NCBI GenBank assembly: GCA_019428825.1
Contig: JAHYJU010000002.1
Coordinates: 1 to 41,282 of the forward strand
Reading direction: 5' to 3'
DNA length: 41,282 bases
Source: Patescibacteria group bacterium
GTDB lineage: Bacteria; Patescibacteriota; WWE3; UBA101185; UBA10185
The notes under the pieces are model-generated. The model was not told where the DNA came from and made no database searches. It saw nothing but the letters and a program-made list of their open reading frames with translations. The first letter of the stretch is position 1; the number at the start of each line of letters is the position of its first letter. Shown piece by piece: positions 30,612 through 39,550 of the stretch. The position numbers and the translations under genes are program-made.

Positions 30612-30624
30612 CCAATGGGTGGAC
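30612..30624 (-). repeat. duplicated 3'-end fragment of the adjacent tRNA-Met gene
   Basis: CCAATGGGTGGAC at 30612-30624 is identical to 30741-30753 inside the tRNA. Similarity extends into the flank (GATGATT versus GATGGTG). The offset is 129 bp. Confidence 0.7.
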
Positions 30625-30735: not shown

Positions 30736-30811
30736 TGGTGCCAATGGGTGGACTTGAACCACCGACCTAGCGCTTATGAAACGCCCGCTCTGACCCCTGA
30801 GCTACATTGGC
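30736..30811 (-). tRNA. tRNA-Met (anticodon CAU; elongator type, or possibly tRNA-Ile2 if lysidine-modified), CCA encoded
   Basis: The reverse complement folds as GCCAATG TA GCTC AGGGGTCA GAGC G GGCGT TTCATAA GCGCT AGGTC GGTGG TTCAAGT CCACC CATTGGC ACCA. The cloverleaf is complete and G1-C72 is paired. Confidence 0.9.
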
Positions 30812-32128: not shown

Positions 32129-33004
32129 ATGAAATTAGAAACAGCTCACAAAAAATTTATAGAAAAATTAAGATCCGAAGGAAAATCGAAAGCCACGGTA
32201 GTTGCTTATAATAAAGATATTGAACAGATACGTGAATTTTTATCTGAAAAAAATATTACTGATGTTGAAGGTATGAAGATTGAACACCTCACATCTTTTA
32301 TGAAAAGCTTGGAGGAAAAAAATTACACTCCTAAGTCTATTTCTAGAAAAACAAATGCTACAAGAACTTTTATTAAATATTTGGCAGGAGAAGGTTATCT
32401 TAAAGAAGACATATCTTCTCAATTAAAACATCCTAAGTTTGAGATGGGGGCTCCTAGGATTTTATCTAAAATGGAGTATAGAGCTTTAAGAGATTCTGCA
32501 AAAGATGATGTAAGAAGTTATGCAATGATAGAGACACTTCTACAGACTGGCATTACTATTTCCGAACTAGCAGGAATTAGCATGGAAGATATTGATATAA
32601 AAGGAGAAACAGGTACTTTGTTTATTCCTAAAAGAAATAATAAAGATGCAAGAAATGTTCCTTTAAATAAAGCGGTTGTTGAAGCGATTACAAAATACAT
32701 AGAAAAAGGAAGGCCTGATGTAAAAGGTTCTTCTAATGATCTTTTTATTACAAAAACAGGAAGGTCTCTTTTGATAAGAAATATTAGATCTACTATTGAT
32801 AGGTTTTTTAGGATAGCAGGAGTTGAAAATGCAAAAGTAAATGACTTAAGACATACTTTTGTAGCCCATCATTTACAAAATGGGGTTAATATTTCTTATT
32901 TAGCAAAAGTATCAGGACATAAAAGAGAATCTACTACGGAAAAATATCTTGAATATATTGAGAAACCGGAGAAGATGGAAAAAACTGAGCTGTCTGTTTT
33001 ATAA
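32129..33004 (+). CDS. Xer-like tyrosine recombinase/integrase with a non-canonical active site
   Basis: 291 aa. The N-terminal SAM-like domain is followed by a catalytic domain that aligns with XerD: QTGITISEL (versus ATGLRVSEL), NKDARNVPL, NDLRHTFVAHHL (versus HVLRHAFATHLL) and SGHKRESTTEKYLEY (GH...Y). Confidence 0.85.
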   Translation: MKLETAHKKFIEKLRSEGKSKATVVAYNKDIEQIREFLSEKNITDVEGMKIEHLTSFMKSLEEKNYTPKSISRKTNATRTFIKYLAGEGYLKEDISSQLKHPKFEMGAPRILSKMEYRALRDSAKDDVRSYAMIETLLQTGITISELAGISMEDIDIKGETGTLFIPKRNNKDARNVPLNKAVVEAITKYIEKGRPDVKGSSNDLFITKTGRSLLIRNIRSTIDRFFRIAGVENAKVNDLRHTFVAHHLQNGVNISYLAKVSGHKRESTTEKYLEYIEKPEKMEKTELSVL

Positions 33005-34674: not shown

Positions 34675-34926
34675 ATGGAATATGCAACATTAACTAAACA
34701 AAATCAAATAACGGTTCCTATGAAAGTACGAGATAAACTCAAACTTAAACCCAGCGATAAGTTGGTTTTCTATGAATCCGGAGACTCCGTAATAGTAACT
34801 AAACTTAAATCTATAGAAGATTTTAAGGGCTTATTAAAGGATTATAAAGTTGAATTAGGTAAACAAGGAAACGAAAGTATCTGGTTGGATAGATACATAA
34901 GGTATGAAGAACAAGCCGAAAAATGA
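34675..34926 (+). CDS. AbrB/MazE/SpoVT-family antitoxin (VapB-like)
   Basis: 83 aa. The N-terminal swapped-hairpin motif is LTKQNQITVPMKVRDKLKLKPSDKLVFYESGDSVIVTKL. It is paired with a downstream PIN gene. Confidence 0.8.
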   Translation: MEYATLTKQNQITVPMKVRDKLKLKPSDKLVFYESGDSVIVTKLKSIEDFKGLLKDYKVELGKQGNESIWLDRYIRYEEQAEK

Positions 34927-35317
34927 TACTTTAAAAGATAAAATTAGAATGTCAAAAGGAGTTGTTGTAGACACAAACATTCTAATAAGAGCTCTTATTG
35001 ATGAAAACGCAGAACTATCAAAACTAATTGCAAACTCTGACGAAGTTCATATTCCATTGCCTATTTTTTTTGAAACAGTATTTGTACTAGAGAAATTTTA
35101 TAAACAACCAAGAGAAACAATTATTGATTATATATTTACTATCGTTTCCTATGAGAATATTTTCACCGATAAAAATAGTCTTAAGGAAGTTCTTTATACT
35201 TATGAAAGAAAACAAAACTTAAGTATTATAGATTGTTTTCTATTAACATACGCCAAGATTTATAATTTAAAAGTAAAAACACTGGATAAGGCTTTAAAGA
35301 AACATTTAATTAATTGA
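34904..35317 (+). CDS. PIN-domain toxin (VapC-like)
   Basis: 137 aa if started at ATG 34904 (23-nt overlap with the antitoxin). An alternative ATG is at 34949 (MSKGVVVDTNILI). Conserved acidic positions are VVVDTN, FFETVFVLE and IIDCFLL. Confidence 0.8.
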   Translation: MKNKPKNDTLKDKIRMSKGVVVDTNILIRALIDENAELSKLIANSDEVHIPLPIFFETVFVLEKFYKQPRETIIDYIFTIVSYENIFTDKNSLKEVLYTYERKQNLSIIDCFLLTYAKIYNLKVKTLDKALKKHLIN

Positions 35318-35338
35318 TGGTGGGTGATCCAGGACTCG
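35318..35338 (-). repeat. exact 21-nt duplicate of the 3' end (T-loop to CCA) of tRNA-Ile, abutting the vapC stop codon
   Basis: TGGTGGGTGATCCAGGACTCG at 35318-35338 is identical to 35485-35505. It begins 1 nt after the TGA at 35315-35317. Confidence 0.9.
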
Positions 35339-35484
35339 GTCACAAGTCCAAGTATCTCTACGTCACTGCGTTCCTAGAGCTTCTTGGCTCGCGACCCCCT
35401 CTCCTTCGCTACGCTCAGTCCGAATTATTCTCGTCCTGTATCACAGAAAGCTAGCTACCATCCTGCGGATGATATCTACCTTTC

Positions 35485-35560
35485 TGGTGGGTGATCCAGG
35501 ACTCGAACCTGGAACCGGGCGTGTATAAGACGCCTGCTCTGCCAATTGAGCTAATCACCC
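35485..35560 (-). tRNA. tRNA-Ile (anticodon UAU), CCA encoded
   Basis: The reverse complement folds as GGGTGAT TA GCTC AATTGGCA GAGC A GGCGT CTTATAC ACGCC CGGTT CCAGG TTCGAGT CCTGG ATCACCC A CCA. The cloverleaf is perfect and the anticodon loop CTTATAC gives TAT. Confidence 0.9.
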
Positions 35561-35668
35561 ATATTTTATCTTTACCTATCTTCCTCTAGTGTCTTTCGCT
35601 CCGCTCAAGTCAAATAATTCTATCTTCTTATGTATAGATTATCTCTGGATATCGCTTCGCTCTATCAG

Positions 35669-35681
35669 GAGCTAATCACCC
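35669..35681 (-). repeat. exact copy of tRNA-Ile positions 1-13 (5' acceptor strand + D-stem)
   Basis: GAGCTAATCACCC at 35669-35681 is identical to 35548-35560. Confidence 0.85.
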
Positions 35682-35759
35682 GTAATAAACCCAGAGTAAA
35701 TTAATGTTAACGTACTTTTATTCTCCGTCTTGGTCAACTACGCTTACGCTTGTTGGCTA

Positions 35760-35779
35760 AAGACGCCTGCTCTGCCAAT
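35760..35779 (-). repeat. exact copy of tRNA-Ile positions 15-34 (D-loop to first anticodon base)
   Basis: AAGACGCCTGCTCTGCCAAT at 35760-35779 is identical to 35527-35546. Confidence 0.85.
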
Positions 35780-35896
35780 CTTACCAACGCACTAACAAAA
35801 AATTATACCTTTCTTTCATTGTCACTCGCAAAAGCTCGCTATATTTTTCTAATCTACAATTATACGTTGGTAACGGTCGTCGCTTCGCTCCGACAG

Positions 35897-35960
35897 GGGC
35901 TAGTCACCCGTGAACATCTCTACTTACCTTCTTTAATATCTTTCGCTCCGCTCAAATATA
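35897..35960 (-). repeat. diverged duplicate of the tRNA-Ile 5' end plus its upstream flank
   Basis: GGGCTAGTCACCC (2 mismatches to tRNA positions 1-13) is followed by ...ATCTCTACTTACCTTC...TCTTTCGCTCCGCTCAAATATAAT. This parallels 35548-35620 (...ATCTTTACCTATCTTC...TCTTTCGCTCCGCTCAAGTCAAATAAT). Confidence 0.7.
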
Positions 35961-35963
35961 ATA

Positions 35964-36314
35964 TCAAACTTCCTCAATCAAAAATTCTTCCAAATCTTCC
36001 TCTTTTTTCAAGTCTTTTCTTCTCTGGACTATACTATCTTTTTCAATCATATCAAGCAATTCCTCCACTACAACCACTAAAGCATTTTCCAATGTAAAAG
36101 CAGTTTCATCAGAGAAATATTCTTTTCCGCTTAGAATCAAATTCACTTTAACTTCAAACTGATCATCAGGAACTGAATTTAAAACTACCCTAGCAAAACG
36201 AGACCCTTCAGGTAAATTATCTGTCCTAGCTTCTATCCTTTCAAATTTCTCTTTCGTTAATGCCTCCATGCTTGGAGAGAGATCTATATTATCGGAAGTT
36301 ATTTGATATTGCAT
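35964..36314 (-). CDS. hpf: ribosome hibernation-promoting factor / RaiA (YfiA) family protein (short form)
   Basis: 116 aa. MQYQITSDNIDLSPSMEALTKEKFERIE...FEVKVNLILSGKEYFSDETAFTLENAL matches the sigma-54-modulation/HPF fold pattern. Confidence 0.85.
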   Translation of the reverse strand: MQYQITSDNIDLSPSMEALTKEKFERIEARTDNLPEGSRFARVVLNSVPDDQFEVKVNLILSGKEYFSDETAFTLENALVVVVEELLDMIEKDSIVQRRKDLKKEEDLEEFLIEEV

Positions 36315-36351
36315 GTCTTTATTTTACCATCCCTTCTGATAAAATGATTTT

Positions 36352-37215
36352 ATGAAAAAACTACAAACATTCTTTTACGTATTTAAGAACAGTATTACTT
36401 CTCATAAGTACTACAATGATATTTTGAAAACTAATTTTTGGTTTTCTGTGAAATATTTTATGATGCTTTCTTTTTTTGCATCTTTGGTATTTACAATATT
36501 CACAAGTGTAGTAATTATCCCGGGTATGGTTTCGGGTATAAGATCGGTATCTCAAAGTGTAAAAGAAGTATTTCCGGAGGACTTAGTAGTAATTTTTAAA
36601 GATGGGGGCTGGGAAACTAATAAAGAAGGCCCCGTTGTAATTCCAATGATTAGTATTGATGAACAACCCCAAGAGTATCTACCGGAAAATATTATTGTTT
36701 TTGATAAAGAGGGAACAATAGATAAACTTGAAGAATACAATACCCTTGCTTTATTAAACAACGAGAATATTATTTACAGGAATGAGGGGAATTCCATAAC
36801 TTCTCAACCAATAAGTAATATTCCTGACTTTACCTTAGATAAATCTACAGTAGATGGGGGTATAGATAATTTGTATAAGTATTTAAGGATACTTCCATAT
36901 GTTCTTCCTTTGTTTATACTTTTATTTACTTTCTTATTTAACTACATTGGGGGAGCTTTCTTTAGTGTGCTTTTGATAGGCCTTGTTTTGTATGTTATTT
37001 CTTTAATATCAAAAACTAAAATACCCTTTGTTTCTGCCATAAAGATTTCTATTCACGCTATGACTGTACCCATAATTTTGCAGTTGATACTTATTCCTTT
37101 TCCTGAAATAAACTCATATATTCCCGGGTGGTTTTTTATCTCAACTTTGATTATTTCACTTTATTTTATGTTTAAAATGGAAGATACTGCAGATCTTAAA
37201 AAAATAGATAAGTGA
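36352..37215 (+). CDS. polytopic membrane protein, DUF1189-like
   Basis: 287 aa. The N-terminus FFYVFKNSITSHKYYNDILKTNFWFSVKYFMMLSF, the TM layout and a central soluble loop resemble DUF1189 proteins (from memory, not verified). Confidence 0.45.
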   Translation: MKKLQTFFYVFKNSITSHKYYNDILKTNFWFSVKYFMMLSFFASLVFTIFTSVVIIPGMVSGIRSVSQSVKEVFPEDLVVIFKDGGWETNKEGPVVIPMISIDEQPQEYLPENIIVFDKEGTIDKLEEYNTLALLNNENIIYRNEGNSITSQPISNIPDFTLDKSTVDGGIDNLYKYLRILPYVLPLFILLFTFLFNYIGGAFFSVLLIGLVLYVISLISKTKIPFVSAIKISIHAMTVPIILQLILIPFPEINSYIPGWFFISTLIISLYFMFKMEDTADLKKIDK

Positions 37216-37219
37216 GAAA

Positions 37220-37248
37220 TTGAGGATTTTGGTTAGGATTGTTATAAT
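37220..37248 (+). promoter_or_regulatory. strong sigma70-like promoter (TTGAGG-17-TGT-TATAAT) heading the noncoding tRNA-Asn leader region
   Basis: TTGAGG lies at 37220-37225, then a 17-nt spacer ending in an extended -10 TG (37240-37241), then TATAAT at 37243-37248. No ORF follows. Confidence 0.5.
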
Positions 37249-37287
37249 TCGAAAGTTATTCGTTGAAAAAGCAAGTTTTGAGAACAG

Positions 37288-37296
37288 TCCCCTGTA
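37288..37296 (+). repeat. tRNA-Asn positions 1-9 fragment (with upstream-flank similarity)
   Basis: GAGAACAGTCCCCTGTA here compares with GAGAATAGTCCCCTGTA at the real gene (37645-37661). Confidence 0.7.
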
Positions 37297-37320
37297 AGAA
37301 CCTTTGCCTTCGGCAAAGAA

Positions 37321-37460
37321 CCTTGCATTTGAGCTATAGCACTTCGTACTATAGCGTCAAAAGAAAGTGCCTTGCATTTGAGCTATAGCACTTCGTACTA
37401 TAGCGTCAAAAGAAAGTGCCTTGCATTTGAGCTATAGCACTTCGTACTATAGCGTCAAAA
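37321..37460 (+). repeat. perfect tandem repeat, 49-bp unit x 2.9, each unit containing a hairpin
   Basis: Units start at 37321, 37370 and 37419 and are identical: CCTTGCATTTGAGCTATAGCACTTCGTACTATAGCGTCAAAAGAAAGTG. The internal hairpin is GCTATAGCAC-TTC-GTACTATAGC (9 bp plus 1 mismatch). Confidence 0.95.
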
Positions 37461-37471
37461 GTAGCTCAATG
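37461..37471 (+). repeat. tRNA-Asn positions 7-17 fragment
   Basis: GTAGCTCAATG follows the tandem repeat directly. Together with 37288-37296 it reconstitutes tRNA-Asn positions 1-17 if 37297-37463 is removed. Confidence 0.7.
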
Positions 37472-37524
37472 CTTTACTGCTTGTGAGATAACTGGGATAG
37501 TATAATATATTTACAATTCAATAG

Positions 37525-37590
37525 TCCCCTGTAGCTCAATGGGAAGAACCGTCTCGCTTCGCTCGAGAACCTTGCGATTGCGCTACAATC
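37525..37590 (+). pseudogene. tRNA-like chimera: exact tRNA-Asn positions 1-18 joined to two foreign hairpin arms, no 3' acceptor strand
   Basis: TCCCCTGTAGCTCAATGG (37525-37542) is followed by GAAGAACCG, then TCTCG-CTTCGCT-CGAGA (37552-37568; 5-bp stem, 7-nt loop), then AACCTTGC, then GATTG-CGCTA-CAATC (37576-37590). There is no complementary 3' acceptor strand. Confidence 0.6.
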
Positions 37591-37652
37591 AAAAACGTGT
37601 TTATTATTTATAATTAAATACGATAAAAATTTGATAAATTAAATGAGAATAG

Positions 37653-37727
37653 TCCCCTGTAGCTCAATGGTAGAGCGTCCGGCTGTTAACCGGCAGGTTC
37701 GTGGTTCGAGTCCACGCGGGGGAGCCA
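37653..37727 (+). tRNA. tRNA-Asn (anticodon GUU), CCA encoded
   Basis: Folds as TCCCCTG TA GCTC AATGGTA GAGC G TCCGG CTGTTAA CCGGC AGGTT CGTGG TTCGAGT CCACG CGGGGGA G CCA. Confidence 0.93.
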
Positions 37728-37747
37728 AATATTCAATCCCCTTTTTA
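37719..37747 (+). terminator. possible terminator that uses the tRNA-Asn 3' acceptor strand as its 5' arm
   Basis: GGGGA (37719-37723) pairs with TCCCC (37737-41) across a 13-nt loop, followed by TTTTTA. Confidence 0.4.
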
Positions 37748-37835
37748 TCCCTTTATAACAACTAATTAACAAATACCCTTTTCAACCCATCTCGGTCTTA
37801 TTCGAATAAATTAAAGAAAAGGTATAATTCTATAA

Positions 37836-38813
37836 ATGATATTTAAAACTCATCCTTTCCAAAAAAGAATAAGCTATAAAGGTACAATCGAGGATTTACT
37901 AAAACAAGTTGTAAAAGATTACTCATTTGGTAACTACAAAAAACATAAAGTTGTTGGGGTAGGATATGAAGATTTTAATGTTGTTACCGAAACTGACAAA
38001 GGAAAATATTTTCTGAAATTTTTTGCAGATTTTAGAGATGATGAGAATTGTCAAAGATACGTAGATATAATTTTATCTGCTATTGAACATAAAGTTAGTC
38101 ATCCAAAAATATATAAATCAAATCAAGGTTATTTTAATAAAATTAACACACTCGATGGGAAAATAAGATTTATAGCAACAGAATATATCGATGGAAAAAC
38201 ATTTTTTGATTTAGGTTTAAAACCCTCAATTCAGGAAAAAGAGTTTTTAATTAGACAAGCTTCCATAATTAACAGTATGCAAATAGCGCCTAAATTTATT
38301 TACGATAGTTGGGCAATAGTAAATTTTCTTCAAGAGTACAAGGAAATTAAAAAACATCTTACTAACGTAGATATTGGATTAATGGAACACTTAGCGAAAA
38401 AATTATCCATGGTGAGTATTGAAGATTTACCACATTGTTTTGTCCACGGAGATATTATAGATACAAACGTTATTCGTTCGAAAAACAACAAATTATATAT
38501 ACTTGATTTCTCTGTATCGAATGTATACCCAAGAATACAAGAATTAGCAGTTATGCTTTGTGATATTTTATTTGAACAAAACAAGAATGATTTTCAAAAA
38601 ACATACGATAGAACACTTGAGGTATATCAAGAAAGCATAAAACTGGAACAAAAGGAAATTGAAACCCTTCCTCTTTATACTCAAGTAGCTCATGCTATGC
38701 ACATCATTGGCTCCGTTAAATCAGCCTTACAAGATGGAGATTCTATTGAAAACAATCACTGGATGGAAATGGGAAGAGAAGGCTTAGTTTTTACATCAGA
38801 TTTTTGGAAATGA
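37836..38813 (+). CDS. phosphotransferase-family kinase (APH / homoserine kinase type II / choline kinase fold)
   Basis: 325 aa. The catalytic loop is CFVHGDIIDTNVI (HGDxxxxN), with ILDFS (Mg-binding D) 17 residues later. The N-lobe is typical: YFLKFF. Confidence 0.7.
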   Translation: MIFKTHPFQKRISYKGTIEDLLKQVVKDYSFGNYKKHKVVGVGYEDFNVVTETDKGKYFLKFFADFRDDENCQRYVDIILSAIEHKVSHPKIYKSNQGYFNKINTLDGKIRFIATEYIDGKTFFDLGLKPSIQEKEFLIRQASIINSMQIAPKFIYDSWAIVNFLQEYKEIKKHLTNVDIGLMEHLAKKLSMVSIEDLPHCFVHGDIIDTNVIRSKNNKLYILDFSVSNVYPRIQELAVMLCDILFEQNKNDFQKTYDRTLEVYQESIKLEQKEIETLPLYTQVAHAMHIIGSVKSALQDGDSIENNHWMEMGREGLVFTSDFWK

Positions 38814-38978: not shown

Positions 38979-39550
38979 TTGGTTATATTAAGGTTACGGT
39001 CGGCGAGCCATTATCCTGTAGTATTTTACAAAGAAGGGTTAAAATATGCTGGATTAATCCCTACAGATACAATCTATGGACTATCCTGCTTAGCTTCTAC
39101 ACAAGAAAATGAAGAAAAAATATATGAGATAAAACAACGAGATTACGATAAACCATTCATTATTCTTATTTCAAATATTAAAGATTTACAAGAATTTGAA
39201 ATACCTCTAGCAAAAGATGAAAAAGAAACATTAAAAAATACTGGCCAGGACCTGTCAGTATAATCCTCAAGGTAGACAACAAAAGATATAGATATTTGCA
39301 CAGGGGAATGGGATCCCTTGCATTTAGACTTCCTAAAGAGAAAGACTTAGTTAACATTATAAAAACAACCGTTCCAATAGTTTCAACCAGTGCAAACACC
39401 TCGAACTACCCTCCCATAAACTCTGTATCAGAAGCAAAAATACAGTTTGAAGAAAAATTGGATTTTATGTTGGACAAAGGAAAACTGAATAATAAACCTT
39501 CCAAAATTATAAAAAAGAAAATGGTATTGAACACATACTTAGATAGATAA
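38979..39550 (+). pseudogene. tsaC: L-threonylcarbamoyladenylate synthase TsaC/YrdC, interrupted by a frameshift in an A-run
   Basis: The N-terminal frame (TTG 38979..39263) has LIPTDTIYGLSC...IKQRDYDKPFIIL. The C-terminal part continues in the +1 frame from about 39219, with KKYWPGPVSIILKV...LAFRLP...PIVSTSANTSNYPP...PSKII. The frames switch at TTAAAAAAT (A6 at 39233-39238). Confidence 0.8.

Follow-up and report, generated by a model that had tools for sequence, protein, structure and literature searches.

The tRNA-Asn gene in a 41,282-nucleotide stretch of DNA from a Patescibacteria group bacterium (contig JAHYJU010000002.1; the whole stretch is hereafter called the window) is preceded by a long leader. 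On balance, this leader was probably built by the locus itself through nested local duplications, kept as hairpins and recombined, and its transcription from a conserved promoter, P1, is predicted. Its roughly 400 bases consist of direct and inverted copies of the start of the gene, folded into hairpins. Within 37220-37727, P1 is followed by two truncated tRNA-Asn 5'-end copies and finally by the intact gene. On the best reading of the data, the locus is neither a mobile insertion nor an integrase scar nor a pseudo-tRNA. All coordinates below refer to the + strand of the window.

Architecture of the tRNA-Asn leader

The intact tRNA-Asn(GTT) gene (37653..37727) is called by ARAGORN and by Rfam (67 bits). 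P1 (TTGAGG-17-TATAAT with a TG; 37220..37248) lies directly past the stop codon of the DUF1189 gene. A preliminary description of this DNA had placed a strong promoter without a downstream ORF here, and both its position and the lack of any ORF of at least 42 aa within 37216-37835 were confirmed. The promoter scan by itself is not above chance (3 found vs 3.7 expected); P1 is accepted because all relatives conserve it in that place. Its motif ATTGAGGATTT-N9-TTGNTATAAT keeps its position across clades A, B, and C, and a P1-related form is found in haplotypes L013, L014, L047, and L048. No terminator is predicted between P1 and tRNA-Asn.

The first truncated copy, S1, comprises tRNA positions 1-9 (TCCCCTGTA, 37288..37296; direct-repeat family D4, 94%) and is preceded by 8 nt starting at 37279, TGAGAACAG, that match the flank of the real gene. 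S2' is a copy of positions 7-17 (GTAGCTCAATG, 37461..37471) and carries the right-hand GTA junction. The second truncated copy covers positions 1-18 (37525..37542; direct-repeat family D3), with five upstream bases, AATAG, identical to the flank of the real gene; this tRNA-Asn 18-mer occurs twice, where 0.01 occurrences are expected. The fragments, the start of the intact gene at 37653 and the restoration of tRNA positions 1-17 by excision of 37297-37463 are all as previously described. The duplicated stretches extend 5-8 bases 5' of tRNA position 1 (TGAGAAC/TAG and AATAG; D3, D4), and since these flanking bases are present in the copies, the source was the gene locus and not the mature tRNA.

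Three units can thus be told apart in the window: the P1 unit, a P2-like unit, and the real gene. The P2-like box (GGATAGTATAAT, 37483..37511; 9/12 in the promoter scan) is similar to the -10 region that P1 has in L013 and L048, with which it shares GATAGTATA (p about 0.03-0.07), and it is conserved in L014, L015, and L047 at 67-83%. Given its poor spacing to any -35 sequence, activity as a promoter is uncertain. The AT-rich spacer before the gene (37588..37652) includes the -10-like boxes TATAAT (37609-37614) and TGATAAAT (37632-37639) and is 80% identical to the clade-B spacer of L020 and L022. Beyond such -10-like boxes, paralogy of the promoter-bearing parts across the three units is not significant.

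Hairpins and their tRNA-derived arms

The 164-bp segment between S1 and S2' holds a perfect 49-bp tandem array that had escaped the preliminary description (37321..37461; 2.9 copies, 100% identity); the copy number may depend on the assembler, and the haplotype of the window was observed only once. Each 49-bp unit forms one hairpin h2 (37328-37361, 37377-37410, and 37426-37459), a 12-bp hairpin whose 5' arm, TTGAGCTATAG, is antisense to tRNA positions 5-15 (inverted-repeat families I7-I9) and whose 3' arm resembles the sense tRNA sequence. Overall, the arms of the hairpins copy tRNA positions 5-18 in sense or antisense orientation (I3-I9), which the preliminary description had likewise missed. 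Upstream of the array, a hairpin h1 is predicted by folding (37293..37327; direct-repeat family D6), with a lower stem TGTAAG/CTTGCA, a 3x3 internal loop AAC/AAC, an upper stem CTTTGCC/GGCAAAG, and a loop TTC; the fold of 37288-37363 is markedly stable (z = -5.6). The h1 module is also present in L015, L038, and L047, with differences confined to the loop. Two direct copies of AAGAACCTT (37296-37304 and 37316-37324) flank the hairpin; this motif sits in the native 23-nt leader of L048 right before the tRNA (4/1000 shuffles score equally high).

The second truncated copy opens a segment previously taken for a tRNA-like chimera, a name retained here for convenience. This interpretation fails: there is no ARAGORN call and no RF00005 match at E<=10, and minimum-free-energy folding gives one long hairpin instead (-21.5 kcal/mol, z = -2.3). 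The chimera is predicted as one long imperfect hairpin (37530..37587), in which sense tRNA 6-18 pairs with an imperfect antisense copy at 37577-37587 and the arms enclose an inner hairpin, hC (TCTCG CTTCGCT CGAGA, 37552-37568). A tRNA or tRNA pseudogene within 37525-37600 was likewise rejected, as the gene at 37653 is the only one that either ARAGORN or Rfam reports. The segments following fragments 1 and 2 are, as claimed earlier, alignable and represent true paralogues of the form AAGAACC - hairpin - GAACCTTGC[A/G][A/T]TTGAGC; only the earlier alignment itself needs correction, one C having been counted twice (AGAACC / CTTTGCC). The leader hairpins leave tRNA positions 1-4 uncovered, and when the full length is folded, fragment 1 pairs with the 3' acceptor strand of the real tRNA in the minimum-free-energy structure.

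No Rfam family matches the tRNA-Asn leader at permissive thresholds. A CRISPR array was dismissed, the 49-bp units being contiguous and identical and the sole CRISPR-repeat model match having E=7. Type III toxin-antitoxin RNA repeats, a T-box, a boxA-like antitermination site, an operator palindrome, oriC/dif, and a split or permuted tRNA were dropped as well, the defining partner gene or motif being missing in each case.

Leader haplotypes in related genomes

Eleven leader haplotypes were compared, drawn from three deep clades among Patescibacteria/Saccharibacteria relatives. They combine the same modules differently, from none up to two 193-bp units. The modules are wholly missing in the close relatives L013 and L048 and are therefore dispensable. 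L014 has a fragment and the P2-like box; L047 adds a 36-nt insert without the h2 interior, and L015 the 30-nt h2 interior. The window carries h2 three times plus the chimera, L021 the chimera alone, L022 and L038 an interrupted chimera, and L020 and L032 the entire 193-bp unit twice; in such a 193-bp x2 array of a relative, the copies differ at 3 positions. Only one h2 unit is present in L015, L020, L022, and L038.

The window and L021 have an uninterrupted chimera, and L020, L022, and L038 have one that is broken at a shared junction, so that interrupted and uninterrupted versions of one site with the same GTA junction do exist in relatives. The absence of the region from related genomes, which the preliminary description would have taken as the sign of a one-off scramble, is not observed: the region is present there, and the same haplotypes recur across independent assemblies (that of the window once). 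Fragment 1 reads TCCTCTGT in L014 and L015 vs TCCCCTGT in the gene, and in the first module of L020 and L022 plain base pairs take the place of the internal loop. Around the downstream APH-family gene, the neighbours differ in every relative. An exact-protein look-up with the two flanking window proteins matched nothing.

Conservation, pairing, and covariation

Four-fold sites of the DUF1189 gene show 24-31% identity between clades and are thus saturated, whereas the leader modules are 90-100% identical between these same clades (91-98% in one comparison). Homologous spacers are 75-80% identical, compared with 58-60% for unrelated spacers. The 50-nt core of the chimera reaches 94-98% identity to clades B and C; it differs at 1-3 positions, the linked spacers at 20-25%. 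For the 34 core bases that are not tRNA-derived, we calculate a chance of about 0.005 of finding at most one change.

Paired cells amount to 91-96% in the alignments of hairpin 2 and the chimera (96% in the chimera). The earlier suggestion that the hairpins are kept as structures gains support from the distribution of variable sites, which comprise 5/9 unpaired vs 4/42 paired positions (p=0.005). The two changes in hC convert G-C or A-U into G-U on the + strand, and the internal loops and the hC loop CUUCGCU are nearly invariant across clades. Covariation, on which that suggestion had drawn, is not significant among the orthologues at this locus, where hairpin 2 has a single compensatory pair and the chimera has none; these tests are uninformative because the sequences of both are too conserved. 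As for the wholesale replacement of stems that are different but paired, such stems can also arise in a single template-switching step (PMC8794818).

The modules are unlikely to be junk because they are common to three deep clades, evolve more slowly than neutral sites and their own spacers, and vary mostly where unpaired; judged from these comparisons, a role for them is probable. The body allele of tRNA-Asn does not agree with the tree of the flanking genes, and the spacer types are incongruent too. The near-identity between clades could partly reflect horizontal exchange instead of selection.

An independent replicate at tRNA-Ile

Neighbouring tRNA-Ile leaders show the same design, a fragment followed by a hairpin and an antisense copy. 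In this hairpin, 5/6 pairs covary, a value reached by 0/500 shuffles; all changes are simultaneous double changes without G-U intermediates. The layout in three parts (sequence, complement, and second copy of the sequence) is shared by the tRNA-Asn and tRNA-Ile leaders. A 21-nt copy of the tRNA-Ile 3' end also lies about 146 nt downstream of the gene. A hammerhead match (HH9) in the tRNA-Ile leader was set aside as a chance match, with E=2.6 and a location on positions that vary between species.

Origin of the leader and alternative explanations

The favoured model starts from the promoter, the leader, and the 5' end of the gene, which would have been assembled into the present leader by nested local duplications. 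Direct tandem duplications would have yielded the truncated 5'-end units, the 49-bp x3 array and, in a relative, the 193-bp x2 array; inverted copies of tRNA 5-18, made by template switching or fold-back, would have turned each truncated copy into a succession of sense strand, inner hairpin, and antisense strand. P1 would transcribe the entire leader into the tRNA, and a cut by RNase P at tRNA position 1 would free the leader. In the transcript, the hairpins would hold the truncated 5' copies and their antisense partners together and may thereby keep them from competing with the folding of the real tRNA, a hypothetical sequestration that the uncovered tRNA positions 1-4 and the pairing of fragment 1 with the acceptor strand speak against. 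Recombination in and around the invariant tRNA would reshuffle the locus between lineages.

Mutation might account for the same architecture without any function. The leader would then be debris of a slippage and template-switch hotspot at a highly transcribed, structured tRNA gene, and the similarity between clades would stem from recent horizontal exchange. Errors of this kind generate tandem repeats and perfect palindromes and can also restore a stem in a single step. The young, perfect arrays (49 bp x2.9 at 100%; 193 bp x2 with 3 differences) fit such an origin, as do the lack of modules in L013 and L048, the incongruence of the tRNA-Asn body allele with the flanking gene tree and that of the spacer types, and the double changes in the tRNA-Ile hairpin without G-U intermediates, which template switching predicts (PMC8794818, PMC3820800). 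However, debris would hardly show a 50-nt core with 1-3 changes next to linked spacers with 20-25%, variation focused on unpaired sites, and the same modules persisting in three clades with saturated neutral sites; we regard this explanation as unlikely. We judge it somewhat more unlikely that the leader acts as a cis-regulatory RNA switch, in which the antisense AUUGAGC... would pair, in the P1 transcript, with the upstream decoy or with the real D-arm region and gate folding or maturation by RNase P, or in which the core would bind a protein or ligand. The three-part layout at both tRNA genes, the near-invariant internal loops and CUUCGCU loop, and the tolerance of G-U on the + strand agree with a switch. 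Against it stand the lack of a match to known RNA families, a likely promoter-like box between the switch and the gene, by which many transcripts could bypass it, the dispensability of the modules in relatives, and the conversion of the first-module internal loop of L020/L022 into plain base pairs.

Two further explanations invoke incoming DNA. Integration or illegitimate recombination, by which an incoming promoter plus tRNA 5' end displaced the resident one and was later deleted down to its ends, appears improbable. Direct repeats of a tRNA segment around inserted DNA are its classic signature, an archaeal 5' fragment is associated with a 1.8-kb recombinase element (PMC3293823), tRNA alleles have evidently been swapped, fragment 1 of L014/L015 (TCCTCTGT) differs from the gene (TCCCCTGT), and the 21-nt copy of the tRNA-Ile 3' end would also fit. 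Yet in 11/11 haplotypes the interval from P1 to the gene is at most about 400 bp and contains no gene or recombinase, the fragment end-points vary (8, 9, 18), unlike those of a fixed crossover, and nothing related was found in viral or plasmid collections. The only nearby tyrosine recombinase is syntenic in all clades, which fits an Xer-type housekeeping gene and not one borne by a mobile element. The preliminary description had read the 164-bp segment as behaving like an insertion flanked by a 3-bp GTA duplication, which, if a target duplication, would make it a MITE-like or hairpin-ended element within the tRNA 5' fragment, with the chimera as a related copy. Filled and empty versions with the same junction in six haplotypes, the patchy presence among close relatives, and the high identity across clades are what such an element would leave, but duplication followed by deletion explains the empty and filled sites equally well, and a 3-base junction identity is typical of microhomology, too. 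Patterns and a covariance model detected no module copy outside the tRNA-Asn leader in 192 kb (the 41-kb window and about 150 kb of related loci), and the chimera covariance model found no diverged copies there either. The leader had no blastn match among phages and plasmids; the module patterns, the tRNA itself, and the gapped pattern fragment...AGAACC...AACCTTGC had none in viral contigs (IMG/VR). The insert ends (AGAACC... / ...GTCAAAA) are not inverted repeats, those inverted repeats that exist being adjacent tRNA copies, and no transposase was recognized among the 20 window ORFs scanned. Moreover, the insert consists of local sequence (sense and antisense tRNA 5-18 and the native-leader motif AAGAACCTT), and a shorter intermediate form occurs in L047. 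A mobile insertion is thus very improbable, and the GTA duplication is best read as the junction of a local duplication and not as a transposon footprint.

A broader proposal, which we put forward as tentative, is that the modules of fragment, inner hairpin, and antisense form a new functional class in Patescibacteria, either as a structured leader RNA, in which rival sense and antisense pairings would control how a single-copy tRNA folds and matures, or as a cassette spread by recombination. Such a class would occur before tRNA-Asn, before tRNA-Ile, and, mirrored, behind tRNA-Ile. Pieces of the invariant tRNA on either side would allow the cassette to pass between lineages by ordinary homologous recombination.

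Comparison with known systems

One of the closest parallels is the E. coli tyrT-tyrV/RttR (rtT) locus, RtT being an Rfam family. There, too, tandem repeats adjoin a tRNA gene, each with a terminal piece of the tRNA: in MG1655, three copies of the last 19 nt of tRNA-Tyr follow tyrV at 178-bp spacing and one lies between tyrT and tyrV, and the first of the downstream copies is precisely where the annotated sRNA rttR ends. The tRNA-Ile trailer in the window shares this 3'-side design. In contrast, the copies at tRNA-Asn are 5'-end copies located upstream, between promoter and gene, and each is closed as a hairpin by its own inverted copy; there is no sequence similarity, and no Rfam family, RtT included, matches the leader. 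Pneumococcal BOX elements, boxA-(boxB)n-boxC, are likewise modular, with an internal module of about 45-49 nt repeated in tandem a variable number of times, and have strong predicted RNA hairpins. They are scattered over the genome in about a hundred copies and unrelated to tRNA, whereas the present modules occur at one locus only (192 kb scanned).

In Caldiarchaeum subterraneum, a 5' fragment of tRNA-Thr lies upstream of the same intact gene, as in the window, but there the 1.8 kb in between is multi-copy and codes for a recombinase (PMC3293823); here, 60-240 bp without a gene separate the two at a single locus within the sequence scanned, and the origin is local. Template-switch (quasipalindrome) mutations are described to create and maintain hairpins (PMC8794818, PMC7202029, PMC3820800). 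As there, perfect inverted repeats lie beside their source, both sides of a stem change together, and a link to highly transcribed DNA exists; those reports deal with a mutational process, while at tRNA-Asn its products have been retained across clades, apparently under constraint. A literature search retrieved no description of such leaders or of rtT.

Biological implications

Tiny genomes, such as those of these bacteria, usually carry each tRNA gene once. If this applies here, whatever is conserved between a strong promoter and such a gene may be a candidate for regulating the supply of the tRNA. The locus offers a clear natural example of how tandem and template-switch duplications turn the sequence of a gene into hairpin RNA, and intermediates of the process survive in living relatives. 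It also illustrates that stems that are different but still paired can be real and maintained and yet are no proof of a mobile element. The tRNA-derived leaders and trailers at tRNA-Asn and tRNA-Ile point to a family-wide feature, which is overlooked by annotation pipelines and breaks metagenome assemblies at these loci.

Organization of the tRNA-Asn leader

The tRNA-Asn leader extends from the promoter P1 (TTGAGG-17-TATAAT, with TG; detected by a promoter scan at 37220-37248) to the intact tRNA-Asn(GTT) gene (37653-37727, located by tRNA tools). Direct reading of positions 36900-38100, combined with repeat, pattern, and tRNA tools, located every element named in the preliminary description, including the lack of an ORF downstream of P1 (none of at least 42 aa lies in the interval). 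These elements comprise the tRNA-Asn fragments TCCCCTGTA (fragment 1 or S1, tRNA positions 1-9; 37288-37296) and GTAGCTCAATG (S2; 37461-37471), and a copy of tRNA-Asn positions 1-18 (37525-37542), which opens a hairpin-bearing region termed the chimera (37525-37600). The truncated copies (repeat families D3 and D4) include 5-8 bases of the gene's own upstream flank and are therefore DNA copies of the tRNA-Asn locus. Several features had been overlooked. The 164-bp segment between the first two fragments harbors a 49-bp unit, present 2.9 times with 100% identity. Each unit forms a 12-bp hairpin (h2) with a 5' arm antisense to tRNA-Asn 5-15 and a 3' arm resembling the sense sequence (inverted-repeat families I7-I9). 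Likewise, an imperfect antisense copy of tRNA-Asn 6-18 resides within the chimera (37577-37587). The chimera had been described as tRNA-like; its predicted fold is one long hairpin enclosing a small hairpin (hC), not a cloverleaf, and neither ARAGORN nor the Rfam tRNA model recognized it as a tRNA, even at E<=10. On these grounds, a pseudo-tRNA was rejected. The leader matched no Rfam family.

Leader haplotypes in related genomes

Orthologous loci were retrieved via DUF1189 protein homologues and their contigs (a DUF1189 membrane-protein gene, 36352-37215, is the upstream neighbor of the leader), via exact matches to the tRNA-Asn body across species-representative genomes, and via a P1-motif scan of metagenomes. 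DUF1189 identity separates three clades, A (55-76%), B (88-92%), and C (79%), with 42-53% identity between clades; 11 leader haplotypes are distributed over them. The simplest layout, in the clade A loci L013 and L048, consists of P1, a leader of 23-27 nt, and the tRNA, with the modules absent. L014 shows an 8-nt fragment enclosed by a mini-hairpin and a promoter-like box (P2-like box, 37483-37511 in the window) between P1 and the tRNA. In L047, P1 is followed by S1 (1-9), a 36-nt insert (AGAACC-h1-GAACCTTGCATTTGA, h1 being the hairpin after fragment 1), GTAGCTCAATGC, the P2-like box, and the tRNA. L015-L019 have this layout with an additional 30-nt h2 interior, and the window, also of clade A, carries h2 three times, the P2-like box, an uninterrupted chimera, a spacer, and the tRNA. 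Among clade B loci, the chimera core is uninterrupted in L021 (identical to L035, L041, L043, and L044) and interrupted by the insert at GTA in L022, and the entire 193-bp unit is present twice in L020 (identical to L032). Clade C comprises L023 (identical to L025 and L028), with the final 25 nt of the core joined to P1, and L038, with an interrupted chimera and h1 of the window type. Since identical haplotypes recur in independent assemblies, they are not assembly artefacts. In an unrelated metagenome organism (L026, 8093-8210; L031, 3434-3560), a P1-like promoter precedes 3-4 tandem units of ~33 nt (ATTCGTATATTGTAGTGAGTGGATAAATT...) and an ORF.

The clade A sister pairs L013/L048 (73%) and L047/L014 (76%) each contain two different tRNA-Asn body alleles. 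The differences lie in the stems of the anticodon and T arms (L013/L047 vs L048/L014/window), and the distribution of the alleles conflicts with the flanking-gene tree. Spacer types also cross clade lines (the window with L020 and L022; L021 with L023), and each clade has its own form of P1 and of the first leader bases. Therefore, exchange or conversion has affected the locus within and close to the tRNA. The DNA downstream of tRNA-Asn is unrelated between genomes (L020-L023), which makes the gene's 3' side a synteny break point; an APH-family kinase gene comes next in the window, a placement not conserved among relatives. The contigs of L014, L016, L017, L022, and L048 stop within or directly past the tRNA-Asn gene.

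Conservation and structure of the modules

Between clades, the four-fold degenerate sites of DUF1189 are saturated (24-31% identity, one listed pair 42%), and the 50-nt chimera core is 94-98% identical. The first module of the window matches L038 at 81/86, L015 at 78/86, and L047 at 45/46 positions; homologous spacers show 75-80% identity, and unrelated spacers reach 58-60% under the same alignment procedure. As their identity exceeds that of spacers and four-fold sites, the modules change several-fold more slowly than linked DNA. The 34 core bases not derived from tRNA show 1 change vs 20% expected (p ~0.005, a binomial estimate of our own). In L023, which has lost half of the core, the remnant is more diverged (23/25 matches to L021 and, by eye, 29/33 to L038).

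The proposed covariation is not formally significant among orthologues at the tRNA-Asn leader, because the hairpins are almost invariant (91-96% paired): h2 displays one compensatory pair (A-U to G-C, L015) vs three stem-breaking changes, and in the chimera double changes are absent, while two pairs became G-U on the plus strand. Variable sites are concentrated in unpaired positions (5/9 vs 4/42 paired; Fisher p=0.005), and the h1 interior exists in four unrelated versions, each a hairpin.

Origin of the leader modules

The 164-bp segment had been interpreted as an insertion flanked by a 3-bp GTA duplication. A mobile insertion is not borne out, as parts of the insert match local sequence and the modules occur at a single locus: patterns and a covariance model of the chimera found none outside the tRNA-Asn leader in the 192 kb searched. 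Similar sequence was likewise absent from IMG/VR contigs, phage genomes, and plasmids. The 20 window ORFs scanned include no transposase, and the sole recombinase among them is a syntenic tyrosine recombinase (32129-33004) ~4 kb from the leader; an integrase scar was also rejected. On sequence evidence, parts of the insert derive from its surroundings. The h2 arms, like the segment GCATTTGAG, repeat the adjacent tRNA-Asn 5' sequence in inverted orientation. In L047, this antisense segment is in direct pairing with the CTCAATGC that follows it. The 'conserved flank' AAGAACCTT is found in the native leader of L048, immediately 5' of the tRNA (4/1000 shuffles score as high). The relatedness of the segments after fragments 1 and 2 holds: they are paralogues, with h1 corresponding to hC and h2 to the short hairpin GATTG..CAATC. 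Tandem duplication of a block starting at G7, then a small deletion, then divergence could give rise to the order S1, X-hairpin, GTA-S2-X-hairpin, in which case the GTA repeat would mark the start of the duplicated block. The perfect 49-bp array and the near-identical 193-bp units of L020, differing at 3 positions, indicate that tandem duplication is visibly ongoing. Template switching accounts for the emergence of perfect stems and their re-matching in one step (PMC8794818, PMC3820800).

A parallel design at tRNA-Ile

The tRNA-Ile(TAT) gene (35485-35560, minus strand), oriented divergently to tRNA-Asn, and its orthologues in clades A, B, and C show the same design and thereby provide a second, independent case. 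In the arrays compared (window 35561-35960, minus strand; L014, L015, L020, L021, L028, L038, and L043), each unit joins tRNA-Ile 1-13 to a small hairpin followed by an imperfect antisense copy (GAGATAATC). The number of units varies between one and three, and the leader also holds copies of positions 14/15-34 or 1-34. Five of the six pairs of the small hairpin show double changes, a value reached by 0/500 shuffles and by none of the shifted controls, and no G-U intermediates were found in this hairpin. A run of N (scaffold gap) within the repeats of L015 (~2330-2420) indicates that such arrays defeat short-read assembly.

Directly 3' of tRNA-Ile lies a conserved structured element of ~125 nt (window 35318-35484, minus strand) that terminates with an identical repeat of tRNA positions 56-76, CCA included; antisense and sense copies of the tRNA 3' end (CAGGAC/GTCCTG, GTGA/TCAC) close it into a long hairpin. 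Clades A and B and L043 have the element, as does L038 (clade C), although in L038 the contig stops before the 3' copy. Given its resemblance to the RttR design of E. coli, this element is a candidate tRNA-like small RNA. Adjoining the 3' fragment copy are genes for a MazE/VapB-like antitoxin and a PIN-domain (VapC-like) toxin (34675-35317); gene calling gave nothing at the corresponding site of L015 and L017. As a rule, each stray tRNA-end copy in these genomes seems to have its own inverted copy as pairing partner. In the tRNA-Met trailer, a 13-nt copy of tRNA-Met 59-71 (30612-30624, minus strand) lies 112 nt downstream of the gene (30736-30811); both window tRNA-Met genes have GC-rich, hairpin-prone trailers.

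A survey of the window and orthologous loci for GAGCG(N)AGCGA, which forms a GC-GNA-GC mini-hairpin between GA..GA, detected this motif seven times within 2.2 kb (window 35363-37564, minus strand), and the rest of the window had none. Every copy is on the tRNA-Ile strand; one of them, in antisense orientation, makes up hC in the tRNA-Asn chimera. GAGCGAAGCGA, an 11-mer from the tRNA-Ile hairpins, also occurs in hC, antisense to tRNA-Asn, which suggests DNA-level copying between the two leaders.

Genomic context

The window belongs to a Patescibacteria (CPR) genome (GC 30-39% in 2-kb windows), with closest database relatives labelled Patescibacteria or Candidatus Saccharibacteria. Its genes include a short AlaRS, FtsH, GroEL, a TraG-like ATPase, and a DUF4012 protein. 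A Sua5/YciO/YrdC-family gene appears as two ORFs (38979-39263 and 39296-39550) matching N- and C-terminal domain parts, reflecting either a frameshift/pseudogene or a sequencing error.

Proposed function and comparison to known systems

No terminator is predicted between P1 and tRNA-Asn, and transcription from P1 would run through the leader into the gene. The hairpins would keep each truncated sense copy bound to its antisense partner, such that their pairing leaves folding of the genuine tRNA undisturbed, and the leader would be released by RNase P. The near-invariance of the non-tRNA core calls for selection. The leader may act as a regulatory switch, its core may bind a protein, or it may serve a role at the DNA level; the occurrence of GAGCGAAGCGA on the same DNA strand in the tRNA-Ile hairpins and hC is relevant to the last of these.

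The nearest described design is the tyrT-tyrV region of E. coli. In strain MG1655, inspection confirmed copies of the final 19 nt of tRNA-Tyr at intervals of 178 bp, the first of which marks the end of the sRNA rttR. These copies are 3'-sided and without self-pairing inverted copies, whereas the tRNA-Asn leader is 5'-sided and hairpin-closed. A 5' tRNA fragment upstream of the intact gene is known from an archaeon, with a recombinase-bearing element in between (PMC3293823). A literature search did not find such leaders described. The tRNA-Asn leader is a real, conserved, lineage-specific feature and represents a new 5'-sided, hairpin-closed variant of tRNA-flanking repeats carrying tRNA fragments.
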